From contig OZ260667.1 in NCBI GenBank assembly GCA_965285935.1, positions 52,762,001 to 52,826,000 of the forward strand: 64,000 nt of DNA, given 5' to 3'. The notes under the pieces were generated by a model. That model was not told where the DNA came from. It searched no databases and saw nothing but the letters and a program-made list of their open reading frames with translations. Position numbers and translations under genes: made by a program. How positions within the stretch are numbered: position 1 is the first letter of the stretch; every line of letters starts with the position of its first letter. The DNA comes from Ophelia neglecta. Lineage: Eukaryota. Positions 1 to 8,400 of the stretch are shown here, one piece after another.

Positions 1-1155
1 ACATAGTCCATTCTAACTATCTGGTTAAACAATGTGTATATTGCGTTTACAAACGCCAATTATGTAAATTAAGTATCTTTAGCCTACCCCTGATAGGCAA
101 AAGAGATACGAGACCTGGTAACTATGGGCATCTCCTCCGAATACGTTCAGGCATTAATAGTGCACACAATAATATTCGAAGTGAGCTTAGTCTAGTGCAA
201 GATACATTATAGTATCGTAATTTGCTGTTGCCCATATTTGGTGACGATTACCATCGCAGCTATGTTAGGGTTTTAGCGTTGCTCGGCACTGCGTATCCCT
301 TACATGCGCAGCTGTTTATAATCTATTGAACAAGTTGTCATGGCTTACTGCTTACATCTCCAAAAAAAGACGATACGTGCATGTACAACCCCTGAAAATG
401 AAATGCTCCCACCCGCGGGGTTACCAGTTAATAATGCACACAATAATACAACAGCGACATGCATTCAGACTTATGGAATATGTTAAGGACAACTTCGTTT
501 GCTGCTGCAGATATTTAGGGACAATATGTCTATCATACGATTGGTTGATTGATTGATTGTTTATTATAGTGGCATAGTGCATATATTTATAAGCATAAAA
601 AGTAAACCTTAGACAAACAAATTACACCCATCCCTACTGGGCTTGTTAGTCACCTGCAAATATGGCATTTCGTAAAAGGAAAAAGGCAAAGTGCATGGCA
701 CGGCCTAGCACAGCCTCCCAAAAACCCATCTTTATGTAACGTGTTTACACTGGGCATAGTATACCATGTGCAGGAAAATCTAAGTACAATTTCTAAATTT
801 TCGAGCATACTTTATACTTGTTTGGAACGCCTATACTGAAATATTTTCAAGATTAGTGTATACAAATCAAACATACTATCATGGTTATAACAGGCCAGAT
901 ACATGTACATGTATATGGGTACAATATTTGGATTAACACAACCCAGGCTATAAGAAATGGGTTAACATGCAAGATATAACGATATTAGGTTTATTGGAAT
1001 AAAAAGTAAATTAAGCAAGTGTACCTGCTTCAATTTTTAACGCTAATGAGCCATGCCTACCCCTGATAGGCCCGCTTTTAAAGATTTACTGGTCTTGTTG
1101 CTACCGATTGGTGATTAACCCCGGCATTAATTTCAATGATTACAACAGGTGTATA

Positions 1156-1333
1156 CAGTGGAACCTGTGAATTAAGACCACCAATGGGACTGGAAAAAGC
1201 TGGTCTTATTTTGGAGGTTGTCTGTTAAGTCATGTTATTAGACATACAAAGTATACAGCATAGTCCTCGTATTAGTGGTCTGAATTGACAAGTGGTCTGA
1301 TTATAGAGGTGGTCTTTAAGGCATGTTTTACTG
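1156..1333. mobile_element. 178-bp MITE, Tc1/mariner-pogo type
   Basis: TA on both flanks (1154-1155, 1334-1335). Imperfect TIRs: CAGTGGAACCTGTGAATTAAGACCACC vs reverse-complemented end CAGTAAAACATGCCTTAAAGACCACC. Internal GGTCT subrepeats. Confidence 0.85.
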
Positions 1334-1649
1334 TATATCTAAAAACTGAAAGCATCGATGCAATAGAGTCGACTTGCGATTTTTACCAAACCTGCATCAT
1401 GCGTGCTGACACCTGTTGGGCATCTACAAGTAAGAGTATGACATAAGATGACATGGTGTATAAACCTAATCTATTTGTTACGTATGACATAGTGAAATGC
1501 GTAATATAAATTGGGTGACAATTTATGACAAGTGTGCAGAATTGAATAATAGGCACCCCAGGCGGCTAGCCCCTATTAGTGTGAAATCTTCGGGAGTATG
1601 AGTATGGGCATGTCTACCCCTGATAGACCTTGACCCAAGTGTATATTAT

Positions 1650-2120
1650 AACCGTATTATTTCTGAAATGCATTCGAATGCCACAGTCCCGTAGCTTGGA
1701 TTTCTAGGTCGGGTTTCCCTTGTTTAACTGCGACCTAAGCATCTCATATCCGAACACTATGGCCCTTGTATAAATTGGGGCCGAGCCCGCCTGATTTAGG
1801 CAGGCACTTATGTTCTGTAAAGCAGTATCTAGACACTGGCTTGCCGTCTAGGCAGGTAAACAGCGGACCAGGGTAAGTTCCTCTCGCTTTAATACAAGAC
1901 GTTAGTGCTGTTGTAGGACACATGCCTATCGTGGCATTCTCTGATCGGCAATGTAACTGGTCTAGATGCAGTGTTCATTTGGGTAAGAGCGGGGAGGTTG
2001 TAGGGCTTATGGCAATAGGAAATTGCTGCCCAATGAGAAGTTATTGTGGCGGGAGCTAAGCCCTGGTCAAATTTAGGACCTATGCATGAGCAGAGGACAC
2101 TTGTAGGAATAGGAAAGGAT
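1650..2120 (-). pseudogene. Tyrosine recombinase of the Ngaro element, internally deleted, with stop codons
   Basis: One frame at 1770-1660 reads YKGHSVRI*DA*VAVKQGKPDLEIQATGLWHSNAFQK, matching box II HSFRIGAA..A...G.....I...GRW.S.AF..Y. ORF 1889-2179 contains the N-terminal GLAPATI.S...AISY.HK segment. Confidence 0.85.
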
Positions 2121-2129
2121 GAATGAAAC

Positions 2130-3060
2130 AGGATATTGTACTTCATATATGCGAGTACGAGGCGTTGCACTAAACACATGAATTGGGGAATATTGAAGTC
2201 TGTTTATTGATAATGTCTACTGTACCCCTATTATCGGTGTGAAATAACACCCACTGAATGGTGTCTATGTGTCGTTAAGCCCCAAAAATCTAAATCCAAA
2301 CCCACTGAATGCGCCAGGCATCACCCAAACTTCTACCGCCAAGACAATTGGCACCAGTTCCAACAATGGAGTTGAGAGATCGGCCCCGGACTTTGGGAAA
2401 GGGACATAAACCCTTTTGTATTCCTAAGTGCAGCTAGCCCTACCGTGGAAGGTGTATACGTGTAGAGATTCAACAGATCGGAGGATATGCAATATTGGAT
2501 TAAGAATAAAGTAGTACCGTTGTAACTCTTAATAAAGAATACCATGCTTCGCCTCATTATTCAAATGAATATGGTGGTGTGGTTTGTTAGCGTGGCATGT
2601 CACGACGAAGGCACGGCCCAGGGCAACTGCTATAGTGTCAAAATTCCCAGGGACGGGCAATTGATACCAAAGCGGATTAAATTATCCGAATTTTGTCTAA
2701 TGGCATGTGGATTTCCATACAGATAGTATCACCATCCGACACCATGAGCTATAGCGACATTTAAAGGTCTTTCATTAATCGGTATGCTTACTTCTTCACA
2801 GAACGTTAGTAACAGGTTTAAATGTTCTAAATAGGTTTCGTCGGGTATATACCAATTGACAGGAGCACCAGGCCTAAGGGACTGCATATCAGCTCAGAGG
2901 TTCTAGGACAGGTTCTGCTACTCTGTTTAAGGATACTTCTATATGAATGGATTTTGTCGCTAAGTTGGGCTTCTTTAAAACTGTTGTGATTCTTTACTAT
3001 CCTAGCTTTTGGTGGCCCCTGATAACCAATGCGCTAACCCCCTGTAAACCCTTCAAATAT
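2130..3060 (-). pseudogene. RT/RNase H remnant of the Ngaro element (RT core largely deleted)
   Basis: RNase H motifs ELVPIVLAVEVW and FHTDN are visible; FHTDN becomes contiguous with the rest once the 2261-2299 insertion is removed. RT N-terminal GF..G.RIGY.GP and EV.L.RVA.P motifs are also present. Confidence 0.8.
2261..2299 (+). mobile_element. 39-bp 5'-truncated retroposon (SINE/LINE tail) insertion with 12-bp TSD
   Basis: ACCCACTGAATG is duplicated at 2249-2260 and 2300-2311. The insert ends in an A-rich AAAAATCTAAATCCAA tail. Removing it restores the Ngaro RNase H reading. Confidence 0.75.
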
Positions 3061-4084
3061 AAAGGTAGCCCTTTATGTGCATAATGTCATATTGGTACCA
3101 TATATCGTTTGGGCGGGAGTGATGGATCTCTCGAATGGTTGGGATATATCTCATAAGTCAGGGCCCAGCCTACGGAAAGGTCTCTAAATAAATAGCCGTG
3201 TAGGTGACAAAGACTAGGGTCCACTCATCGAAGGAATTGATCTTGTCAGGTTTCTTAGAATCTTCAATGGGAATCGAAGGTTGATTGTTTCTTTCTATTA
3301 ACGTAAAAACGTATGTTAATATCCTCATTATGGGCAAGGAGTGAGGCAAGATCTCCGTACTGATAAGCGCTATTCTATGATATAAGGGTATATTTTATCC
3401 CCCCTCCCAGGGGCATGCTAGAACTTTGGGCTGTTGTTGGCCAATTAAAGGAATCATGACTAGCCGCCTGGTTACCTTGTAGTGCCAATACTGCAGTTTT
3501 TCTCTAGTCTAGAGTGGTGAGTTCGCTGCTGGCTGGTATGTCGGTGACCTGGTCATAATCCTCAATTGGCCGACTGGGCTCGTGTGTATCAGATGCCGAC
3601 GGTGTTGCGTCGTTGACATCCAGGTTCGAAACGGAACTCCGCTAATCGTGGTTATTCGCTGGGTCCTCCTTGATGGCGTCCTGTGGAACATGGGTAACTG
3701 TAGACATGCTTTTGAGGGCTTGATGTTTAGGAATCTGGTGTTGTTTGCCTTGTGTGATACGGCCGTTTCTCCGGATGGTCCCCATGGGTTGTTTTCTTGT
3801 TAGTAGGAGCCATGCTGAAACATATACTGACCAACCAGAGTATGCGTGTATAATATCCTAAGCTGTACAACTTTAGACACTTGCTACCCGACCAGTGTTG
3901 TACGTACATTACCGACTAGCAGTTGCCTACATATTACTTAGGAAAAAGGATATAGGGTCCATAACTCGTCACGTTTAATAATAAGGGTGTTAATATATGT
4001 ACCTGAGACATGTATATTTGTCATAGTTATACACCAGACGAATATCCCCCGTGACGCAAGCGTGTAATTGTATTCGGCCTATGG

Positions 4085-4700
4085 GTCAATTGCCTGACGC
4101 AGCACATTAGTATGGCTACTAGGCCAGCCATAGGCACGGGCCACATCTAGCCGAGTCCAGCTCACAAAAAGCATAGCCGGATGTGACCCAATAGGTGCAC
4201 TTATATGGGTATTTGGCCAGCCATAAGCACGGGACACACCTAACGAAATCCAGCTTATAAAAAGCATGGCCGGATGTGTCCCGATAAGTGCAAATATATG
4301 GTTATTTGGCCCGTCGTAAGCACGGGCCACATCCAGTCAAGTCCCGTTTATAACGGGCGTGGCCGGATGTGACCCAATAAGTGCAATTATATAACGCGTT
4401 CAGGCGCAAGCACTAGGCGAGCACAAATGTAGAGAATGGTTATAATACGACAGGCCGATAAACCATAGTTAAATAATTTTGGCCAGCAAGTAGCACGGAC
4501 CCCGTCCAGCCAAGTCGAGTTTATAGAAAGCGTGGCTGGGCGTGACCCAATAGGTGCGATTATATAACACATTCCGGCGCAAGCACGAGGCGGGCACAAA
4601 TGTAGAGAATGGTTATAATATGCTAGGCCAATAAAGCCACAAATAACAGTAATAAGGCGAAATAGGCCATATCTAGCTAAGTCCAGCATTGTGGAAAAAC
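4085..4700. repeat. Diverged minisatellite: about three 93-bp units followed by longer (~173-bp) derived units
   Basis: The anchor GTGWCCCRATARGTGC recurs at 4183, 4276, 4369 (period 93) and 4542 (period 173). The block GGCGCAAGCAC..GGCG.GCACAAATGTAGAGAATGGTTATAATA occurs at ~4403 and ~4576. Confidence 0.85.
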
Positions 4701-5049
4701 ATAGCCGATAATAACCATTCCGCGTGGTTACTATCCATGTGGCAAATATAATATACGTGCTGTATATAGTATATATGGCAGGCCCGAAGTTTTCACGCAC
4801 GCTTACACCGGGGAACACTCGTCTACTGATAATAGGTACAAGCTTGTGACTTACAATATGTTATAATTGTATAATCAAAGTGAGCCCACTCTACTATGGA
4901 TGCTCAATAATAGTCATATTGTCCACTACGAGTCGTTGAGAAATTTAAATGCTTTCGGCACCGCCCCTCTGATATCTCAGTAGAGGTACCACTCTCCCAG
5001 GGTATTCAGGTGAAGTGGTCGGCGAGCAATATGTGAATTGGGTCGTATA

Positions 5050-5450
5050 GAATCTTATCTTTTTTGCTATGGTACAAACTAATACAATATTGAAATTCCC
5101 AAGGGATGCTAATTCATCACCCTTGTGTATAGTAAAACATAGCAAGTATGAGCAAGGCCACTGAAATAGCTAGGGGTATTAACACAATACAGCCCTCTTT
5201 AGAAGACAGTTCAAATGCGTAAAAATTTTACCCCATAGCCTTCTATAAGGAAACCAGCAGATGGTATAGCGTTGATCCCCAATTTTGGGCGCACACCAGG
5301 CAGCTAGTTCATGTAGCCTCAGGCCAGCTCAACCAAATATGAGAGAACTGTACAAGTGCCTCTAGCACTAAAGTATTCTGAAACTTCCAATGGAATGTAT
5401 CAGTATATTTGGAATTTGCCCAGTAGGCAATGAATGAATGTCCAAATAAC
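5050..5450 (-). pseudogene. SGNH/GDSL hydrolase-like remnant of the kind carried by Ngaro elements
   Basis: LFGHSFIAYWA (5449-5417) resembles block I W..GHS...WA. KLGINAI (~5285-5265) resembles block III LG.ND. KGDELASLGNFNI (~5125-5087) weakly resembles DGVHL..LGN. Confidence 0.5.
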
Positions 5451-8400
5451 TCTACAGTGAACATAATGGCTATGAAGAAGTACCAAAACTAGCAGAGACA
5501 CTAACCCAATTGCTCGCCGACCACATGTATCAGTGCTATAGGTAGGAGAGTTTCCAAACACACCTATCTGGTAAGAGTGAAGCTCGCTGAAAGGCAGATA
5601 GTCTGTAGAACAGGCCAGTCTTGATCCGCATGGCTGCTTTTGGGCAGGCCTATTATCCGGTCAATGGCTTTGCCACCTTCACCCCTTTGGCACAATAGTT
5701 TAGTCTGCATAGCTAATTACCTTAAGGCTGGCTTGTACCAGTAAAATGTAGCATAGAATGGCATGTGTGTACAATAGGTAATATAACTGTTATCAAAACA
5801 AAATACTCCCATGAAAACAAGAAATGCATTTATTGTTACAATAAATTTGTTTTTCTTTCTCATCATTCTCTGGTTTGTGTTTAAATTTCATTTCTAGTCG
5901 CATAATTAGGAGGGACCTCCGTCCGCCATTGACTTTGCTATGGCATGTTTGATCCCTCGCGGGCAATGACGATTGACTCGTTTATTTTTCGGCTCTTACT
6001 CGCATCTTCGAAAACTGTTGACTTCTTATCATAGCAAGGAATTAATAAAGTGTTTGGTTGTGGCAAGTATCCACTCCCGTGTTTTATCTGCAAATTGAGT
6101 TTTGATGCAAAATGCATATATATGCATTCACATATAATAACAGGCTGAATAAGGTAATTTTACTAATTATTTTAGCGAAGCGTATCCTGTGCGGTAGAAT
6201 ACATGAAACCGAACACAATCATTGCATTAAAAACATATGTGGCATTTGTCCTCTTTTGCCATGTGTGTATGTCTACTCCCAAAACGATACATTATCTGGT
6301 ACTACGGGAAATTGTAGAGAAACATATTCACTAGAGGACCATCCTTGAGTTGTTTTTATGTACAGAAAAGGCCCCAGACTGCTCATAATCCTCAGTCATA
6401 TACCTTACACAGATTTGACATTCCCACGGGCACTGATTGTAAATGGTTAGCTGGTCGTAACAGGTTTGATCGTTCCCTGGTTAATTTCCGACCTTACACG
6501 CCGCTCAGATATAATTGGATCGAAGGCTGAATATCAGCAACGCCAGAGTCGCAAGGCTGGCCGAATCGCAAAGCAAACACCAATAATCTCGTGAGAATAT
6601 TGGTAGATTCCGGGGAAAATATACAATTAATAGATTCCTGCCCCCATTATACACAGGTTTGGGGTTGACATTTCTTCAATTCAAGAGCAGTCAAATGGAT
6701 CCATGTTTTGACATTTTTGCACTCGGAAAAAAACCGCTCACGCCCCATGCTATGACGTCCTTAATGCAAAGAAACATTACTTTGTGTCTACGTGCTGCTT
6801 TATTATGTCTTCTTGATTAGCATCATAGATCTGCAGTGACTACCTCAGAGAAGGTCGAAATTACCGCTCACTAAAGCCCGCATTGCTTTACCTAGACCTG
6901 GTTTCTCTAGTCCATTGTGTCTTGAGTAAAAAAAACAGCTTAGCAATAAACTGAAAGAGGAAAAAACTTGCGCCTGTAGTCCCTTATGAATTTAATGATG
7001 TGTAAATACATTTATTCGTGTAGAATTATCACTTAAATCGTAAGCTGCTAATGACTTATAAAACAAACCAGTCGACAATCAGTCGGCAATATTACGATGT
7101 GATTATTTCATGTCCTTTTATCTGAATTTGTTTGTAGAAAAAAGCCAAATAAACGACCATGAATTGCGTTTTTCTGAGACTACTGGCGCTACTGTGGTCT
7201 CATTCTAAATATGTGATAGCATGTGTTACCATGTGGTTCATTTTTGTAATACATATGATTTGGTAACGTCATTTCCTGGATCTGAATTGTGGAGCACTTA
7301 GGTACCCATTTACTCCGTCATGAATTTCAATCACAGTTTTGTCTGACAGCTGGATAATTGGCTTAGCACTAATAGTAAACGGAGCGTGGATTTGTCAATA
7401 TCAAGGCTAATGATATTGACATTTCGATCAATAATGAACAACTATCCCCAGAATGATCAAGTGAGTTTGCCTGGGATCTCTTGAGGTGTTGCGGACAACA
7501 GTTTAAATATAAAAGTTCATCAGCTAAAATCAGTCGACACCATTCCCAATTCTACAAATTGTCTTACTATTGTATTTTTTGTGGTATACTTTGATATGTT
7601 ATCATTCGACATCAAGGTAGATAGAATTACTAATTTGTTTAAAGTATTAACGGAAAAGCTATCTTAATAAAATGAATTATGTAATAAGAAAATTGATAGC
7701 AACATTATTTATAGCTACTACATCAAGAGGCCAAGCCTTTATGCACGAAAAGGCACATTTTGCTTCATCAATTATAAGTTCTGTAATGAATAATTCCATT
7801 AAAGCGTTGCCATAACGTACATTCCCATCATTGTTTCTTGGCAAGAAACATTCCCTCCCTAAGTGATCAATTTGATTTGAACGCCACGGATGTCTTTTAT
7901 ATCAAATGTCCACAGGACTTGGCCTAAAATTGGGGTAAAAGTTATCCAATAGTTGAAACCTACGATACAAGCAGCAGCTTTCCGAGCCAGAAGTGGAAGC
8001 ACTTCTCCTTTCCAAGATGCATCACGCACTTAACGCTTTGCCATAAGTACATCATTTTGTACTAGAGATATATCAACAGGTGAATTCAATAAAAATGAGG
8101 GAAATAAAAACTTAATGAATAATGAATAATGATGCAGTAATTGAAAGAGGTTTTATTTTATATACACGAATGAAGCTATACATGTGATGTGTCTTGTGCG
8201 TTTACTTGTTCTAATTTTTGTCAAGGTAGATATGTGTTGACCAAGATAAAGGTTTTACAATGTGCACATTTCCATTTTATTGTTCAGGTCATGAATGTAA
8301 TGGTATCAATATCCACGAGAACAGATGAATCGATAGTAATGTCATCAGTATTTACATTTTTTTATTGCTGAAATAAATGAACGATTCGGTATTAATGAGT

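Follow-up and report, generated by a model that had tools for sequence, protein, structure and literature searches.

Arrays of protein-binding hairpins are an already known kind of cis signal. The CCHC knuckles of retroviral nucleocapsid proteins read exposed loop bases of the Psi packaging hairpins, and MS2-type RNA phages have an operator hairpin and multiple packaging signals. The 3′ stem-loops of LINEs (UnaL2/ZfL2) and hepadnaviral epsilon are single, terminal and bulged; they give template specificity and are borrowed by non-autonomous partners. Ngaro elements, which are tyrosine-recombinase (YR) retrotransposons of the DIRS order, are defined by the layout A1-ORFs-B1-A2-B2 in the available sections of two sources (bioRxiv 2021.08.05.455354; PMC4157794), and these sections do not mention a hairpin array in the tail. 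Full-text searches gave no description of hairpin arrays in Ngaro or DIRS tails, their scope being such that the founding Ngaro papers, the 2015 review and Repbase lay outside it and could mention tail repeats.

The stretch of DNA analysed here (64 kb, referred to as the window) carries on its minus strand an element that was classified from its sequence as a Ngaro retrotransposon, on the basis of its split direct repeats, the order of its ORFs on one strand and the lack of a methyltransferase. The layout is A1-[ORF1, RT/RH, YR]-B1-A2-B2, with B1-A2-B2 downstream of YR, A and B being 303 bp and 131 bp long and the repeat pairs 96-100% identical. The 5′ end of the element is marked by repeat A1 at 5550..5853, and the three ORFs are broken: a gag-like ORF1 at 3077..3860, whose zinc-finger end had no match in the window copy; RT/RNase H, with matched pieces within 2120..3070; and YR at 1646..2330 (upper limit approximate), where tblastn with the YR of an intact relative, L081, matched 1660-1941 and 1967-2149. 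Positions 1..1645 are the visible part of a 3′ non-coding region of ca. 3.1 kb that extends from the YR stop to B1 (loci L031 and L032), and repeats B1, A2 and B2 lie about 1.5-2.1 kb to the left of window base 1. No methyltransferase domain was found; ORF2 of L081 overlaps YR directly and had only RVT_1 in Pfam (E 1e-13). The YR ORF of L081 gave no match when searched against Pfam, and we take it to be a YR from catalytic motifs in the ORF.

Repeats of other kinds were also seen in and around this copy. A MITE-like insert of ca. 180 bp, with the ends TA-CAGT...ACTG-TA, occupies 1155-1334 and so separates hairpins a and b described below; its contig depth of ca. 1e5 marks a very high-copy repeat, and its end word is missing from L081. 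Positions 2258-2327, inside the RT/RH remnant, give a short match to another high-copy repeat that is skipped by some contigs, and repeats of 93 nt and 173 nt, which contain inverted arms, occur at 4111-4635, in the long 5′ leader of the dead family. To the left of the window, pieces of a glycosyltransferase family 92 gene lie beside the 3′ end of the element (L031 865-2497).

The original prediction described three palindromic sites with an invariant 7-nt centre (CCCCTGA), each within an outer stem, the last one about 20 nt behind the YR end and with a compensatory arm change. All three 17-mers (82-98, 1055-1071 and 1612-1628) were verified, and the 64-kb window holds no other match with up to three mismatches (3 versus 0.18 expected; none of 100 shuffles reached 3). 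Outer, or lower, stems are present around all of them, giving the minus-strand hairpins c1 (73..109), b (1048..1077) and a (1605..1637). Hairpin a has a stem change on both sides, and its core begins 17 nt behind the remnant YR stop, a TAA on the minus strand at 1646-1648; hairpin b has an equivalent in L081; and hairpin c1, a CAGGGG loop with a lower stem, belongs to the first of four tandem units of ca. 420 bp. The description needed correction in two respects. The informative strand is the minus (coding) strand, with a U-CAGGG-G centre that can be closed by a U-G pair, and the invariance of the 7-nt centre holds only within the window's own family. Secondly, the three sites are real but make up half of an array that is split by the window edge: three further copies (c2-c4) lie to the left of base 1 (locus L031), giving six per element.

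The exact site pattern occurred 202 times in the 762-Mb host genome versus once for the control. Its occurrences form clusters of 2-6 with fixed spacing, about 22 of them among the 100 places listed, from which a family of roughly 40 elements was extrapolated for all 202 places. Twenty stretches, corresponding to 19 elements and about half of the family, were fetched and compared. The copies are about 7.7 kb long and 93-99% identical to the window copy; 13 of the 19 elements have six hairpins and the rest four or five. All six hairpins sit between the YR stop and B1, and thus outside the longer split direct repeats within which they might have lain as ordinary repeats. In the stretches where the ends of the element could be read, they map to the B/A junction, a short A-rich sequence that element and target have in common, far from the hairpins. 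L049 and L050 form a subfamily with a shared internal deletion of ca. 1.7 kb of YR/RH, and there the closing pair of hairpin b is changed from U-G to U-A.

ORF1, RT/RH and YR were all fragmented in the seven copies compared. Of 16 in-frame stop sites, 6 were common to 9 or more of 12 copies, which places the spread of the family after the death of its ORFs; the family is non-autonomous yet young. The array is not confined to dead copies. The intact relative L081 (ORFs of 437, 664 and 336 aa, in order on one strand) carries one copy each of hairpins a, b and c, as against a, b and c1-c4 in the dead family, which therefore multiplied c fourfold and has four of its six hairpins in the ca. 420-bp tandem units. 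Across nine tandem c units, the hairpin is invariant over 29 consecutive nt; elsewhere no invariant run exceeds 8 nt, and 53% of the other columns are invariant. Six perfect hairpins were thus kept in a family with shared ORF stops, as expected of a signal needed in cis. Three sequencing runs behaved as DNA, since the unique flank was evenly covered. One copy (L034, G000:C1:146606900-146612600) is interrupted within its 420-bp tandem units by an insertion of 5.8 kb, in which there are ORFs of 424, 156 and 1114 aa.

The breadth of the array was evaluated in 58 Ngaro lineages, 25 from the host genome and 33 from other hosts. The host genome alone holds at least 25 co-existing Ngaro YR families, many of which have open ORFs and terminal repeats that are 96-100% identical. 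The other-host set came from a YR-alignment scan of metagenome contigs, which gave 80 loci in 41 clusters at 75% identity, 33 of them with at least 300 nt behind YR; a metagenome scan with a single protein query had given no matches. For each lineage, the most repeated 16-mer (up to three mismatches) was sought in the 900 nt behind YR. The 16-mer was present three or more times, two or more of its copies being centred on a hairpin, in 37 of 58 lineages (controls, 0/58 YR ORFs and 3/25 host flanks), and at least two hairpin-centred copies were present in 43 of 58 (controls, 1/58 and 3/25, respectively). The antisense run gave 32-36/58 and is no independent control, the repeats being strand-symmetric. 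An array was not found in 15-21 of the 58 lineages, some of which are short or decayed. Lineages with an array have 3-9 repeats spread over up to 3 kb, and in most lineages the flanks of the copies share an identity of about 0.3 (range 0.17-0.45).

When strong hairpins were listed without bias, families without CAGGRG turned out to carry repeated hairpins of their own, and four loop classes plus several single variants were assigned by eye. Class I (loop CANGGG) comprises the window clade, L095 and a large clade from other hosts; class II is UUAGAGC-N3-GCUC (GAGC-WAC-GCUC), class III is CAGC-N4-GCUG, and class IV has UUCUAYA loops. The classes share a common plan, namely a lower stem that covaries, a 5′-side bulge of 1-2 nt, an upper stem of 2-5 bp and a small loop. 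Loop classes follow clades on the YR tree, even within one host, in a combined tree whose deep branches are poorly supported, so that one and two origins of class I are indistinguishable. In an earlier YR tree, eight families grouped together (97/96) under a CAGGRG-only label that preceded L095 and classes II-IV; L090 was excluded as too short. Within the host genome, motifs II, III and IV never occurred outside their own clades, and motif I occurred 36 times in the 8 class I tails and 9 times in 12 other tails, part of these nine being L103-type AGG loops that are apparently intermediate between classes I and II. Hairpin arrays, thus, occur in most of the Ngaro lineages examined, and their loop sequence is specific to the clade.

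Nine families of the host genome have 31 distinct CAGGRG sites in their tails, with coding-strand arms such as GCCUAU/GUAGGC, GGCUAU/GUAGCC, GGCUUU/GAAGCC and UGAUUU/GAAUCA. On 34 aligned sites from nine families, the covariation score was 0.336 as compared to 0.189 in shuffled sets (0/500), a comparison that relatedness of the sites can inflate; slid registers gave 0.05-0.15. Class II sites gave 0.265 versus 0.143 (0/500). Class I sites from other hosts showed weaker covariation in a single register (12/500), and RNAalifold on this set kept only two apical pairs because the bulge register varies. A strand-neutral comparison was made by folding 167 hairpins with Watson-Crick pairs only. Their isolated mismatches were G-U in 16 cases and A-C in 4 (p 0.012), as against 78:67 in background hairpins of the same tails, and their bulges were 121 on the 5′ side and 45 on the 3′ side, as against 369:395 in the background. 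Since both biases favour the coding strand, the working molecule is most likely the transcript. The position of the hairpins was restricted: in nine elements, there were 0-1 motif hairpins per ca. 5 kb upstream, 1-5 in the 0.3-1.3-kb tail and none from B1 on. Rfam gave no relevant match on window positions 1-6000, hammerhead included, and nothing at gathering score on six intact elements. The pattern of covariation, strand bias and position makes it very probable that the hairpins act as a cis signal at the RNA level. We infer that they fold in vivo and, from the layout only, that they are included in the full-length transcript.

The original prediction had allowed for either RNA stem-loops or DNA sites of the element's own YR. 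The intact relative, the location outside the repeats, the covariation and the strand bias favour the former. As DNA targets, the sites could be duplex core sites or attC-like sites folded in single-stranded cDNA; the inverted arms do flank an asymmetric centre, and one-sided bulges recall integron attC. DIRS cDNA is single-stranded according to the available part of one source (PMC7192593). However, the element ends at the A/B junction wherever this is readable, the wobble bias favours the coding strand and not first-strand cDNA, and the arms vary freely both between and within families. Because duplex recombinase sites would keep their arm sequence, the core-site version is unsupported. Breakpoints inside CCCCTGA, which had been suggested as a sign of recombination, were not seen: among the 19 elements, about half of the family, the placeable internal deletions (L046, L048, L049 and L050) do not end in a hairpin. 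We consider a role as YR targets very improbable. Neutral by-products of tandem duplication in a non-coding tail, a reading to which the four of six family copies in ca. 420-bp tandem units lend some colour, are refuted by the flank identity of ca. 0.3, the covarying stems and the core that stays invariant despite diverging units, and hardly any weight can be given to it.

At the RNA level, the hairpins might hide or present 3′ splice-site-like CAG/G words and so control splicing or the export of unspliced RNA. Many class I sites read YYNCAG/G, and HBV SL-alpha is reported, in the available part of PMC2275152, to contain a 3′ splice site. Since the CAU, CAA and CUU variants as well as classes II and IV lose the loop AG, this function is very improbable. 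Two further candidates were rejected. In an iron-responsive element, a stem of 5 bp carries a CAGUGN-type loop and has a bulged C beneath it; here position -6 was mostly G (23 of 31 sites, with C in one), C.GT loops were not enriched, and Rfam gave no match. Pairing of the loop with a C-rich stretch behind A2 was indicated by an 8-nt complement in L032/L081, with a single occurrence in each of L086 and L096, and this complement is missing from L083, L098, L102 and L119. A C-rich stretch right after A2 is found in most elements checked; it is roughly complementary to a G-rich word near B1 and could serve a template jump. The G-rich word, with small hairpins, precedes B1 or stands at its start in most elements checked (L032, L083, L086, L095, L101 and others).

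As for the reader of an RNA signal, a host protein of the SAM-domain type, such as ZCCHC14-TENT4 or Smaug/SAMD4, might be recruited through CNGG(N) loops and serve the stability, export or localisation of the RNA. Such loops are bound by Smaug and ZCCHC14, as described in the available portions of five sources (PMC4053848, PMC2275152, PMC11055085, PMC9282228, PMC12846552); the window loop CAGGG(G) fits the CNGGN consensus given in the first of these (PMC4053848), and the loop of HBV SL-alpha is CAGGU (PMC11055085, PMC2275152). The host carries a ZCCHC14-like gene (L141/L144: Vts1 domain, SAM, CCHC) and a Smaug/SAMD4-like gene (L142/L156: Vts1 domain, SAM), and CNGG hairpins are enriched in the tails from other hosts (30 versus 2-6 in shuffles). 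However, the same stems also carry CAAGGG, CAUGGG, CACGGG and CUUGGG. The SRE consensus has an unvarying G at loop position 3, which here was G in 23, U in 19, A in 12 and C in 7 of 61 distinct sites from other hosts; it is invariantly G only in the window's subclade, and the sister family L095 has CAUGGG. The pattern C..G.G was the top one of 64 loop patterns, with 70 of 312 occurrences in hairpins as compared to a median of 0.03, to 15/202 in antisense and to 8/262 in the YR ORF. Moreover, classes II-IV are mostly without CNGG, and one host holds all four loop classes. A Smaug/ZCCHC14 reading for the whole class fails on the free loop position 3. A host reader is, therefore, unlikely as the general explanation, and the CAGGGG subset might have a putative secondary use by a SAM protein.

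The four clade-specific loop codes in one host are hard to explain by one host protein, and an element-borne reader is favoured for this reason; judged from sequence, the predicted reader is probably encoded by the element itself. ORF1 and the RT/RNase H protein are the two candidates considered. An RT that reads the same tags for template choice or priming, in the manner of LINE 3′ stem-loops or hepadnaviral epsilon, would be encoded by the element as well and would account for clade-specific loops just as readily. Signals recognised by an RT are, however, mostly single and terminal. The 3-9 copies seen here extend over as much as 3 kb and end short of B1, which fits a multivalent structural protein better. 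According to the part of PMC7192593 available, no primer is known for DIRS elements, although a hairpin at the 3′ end has been proposed in the past. We regard an RT reader as unlikely, if somewhat less so than a SAM-domain host reader.

The C-terminal end of ORF1 is formed by a CCCH finger with a CCHC knuckle immediately behind it. The ligands of both are all invariant in 23 of 23 aligned ORF1s, a set chosen by the zinc motif itself and to which several lineages contributed no intact motif. The fingers gave weak Pfam CCCH matches and were modelled with confidence in the predicted structure. A full-length ORF1 model had a pLDDT of 36 and no fold match, and a trimmed core (L081 residues ca. 180-395) was modelled with a pLDDT of 81 as a conserved helical core with a beta hairpin. 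Compared with PDB representatives and viral models, the trimmed core gave no clear match, the best one having a Z of 4.7 and resting on generic rows of helices. The tree is tracked by loop class and by zinc-finger sequence alike, and their match is not independent evidence of co-evolution. ORF1, rather than RT, is preferred as the predicted reader, at odds slightly better than even. Our main reading is that the three window sites are three of six bulged hairpins which likely form an RNA self-recognition tag, predicted to be read by the zinc-finger protein encoded by the element's ORF1, and we assign it a probability of about 55%.

In this self-recognition model, several ORF1 molecules bound along the tail would start the particle in which reverse transcription happens. 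The RT of DIRS-1 acts in trans, as stated in the available part of PMC7192593, so that a cis tag would be useful. A dead family would keep and multiply its tags to capture the proteins of a helper in trans. More tentatively, and with somewhat less than even confidence, the model may extend to a superfamily-wide RNA code, in which the 3-9 bulged hairpins of each clade would be read only by its own predicted ORF1 CCCH-CCHC module, co-resident clades would avoid cross-packaging, and dead families would win helper protein by multiplying the tag.

How YR retrotransposons choose and package their RNA is the question on which the array bears, and it offers a concrete candidate signal. The candidate reader module has about 40 residues, and the four loop classes in one genome provide a built-in specificity matrix. 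The tag model would also explain how a family with three dead ORFs reached ca. 40 near-identical copies. If true, it would be the first case of a signal for template selection in DIRS-order elements, and would offer a natural library of orthogonal, MS2-like pairs of RNA tag and protein, which may yield small RNA-binding tags. What is new here is the breadth over lineages, the clade-specific loop code in one host, the strand test and the amplification in a non-autonomous family.

The element shares with the Ngaro superfamily its layout, the lack of a methyltransferase ORF and ends at the A/B junction. Like the retroviral Psi and MS2 signals, the array is made up of multiple short hairpins, each with a small loop that is exposed and a bulge on one side, and it is accompanied by a zinc-knuckle protein encoded in cis; it differs in that it lies in the 3′ tail and not in a 5′ leader, in that its loops are clade-specific, and in that the capsid role of ORF1 is putative. 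The SAM-bound CNGGN hairpins, SRE, HBV PRE SL-alpha and HAV Vb, resemble the window hairpins in their loop, which CAGGG(G) fits, and likewise in their 3′ non-coding position; unlike them, the Ngaro class has a free position 3, a fixed G at position 6 and three further loop classes. The LINE 3′ stem-loops and epsilon are likewise element-specific bulged hairpins, from which the Ngaro signal differs in being arranged in arrays of 3-9.
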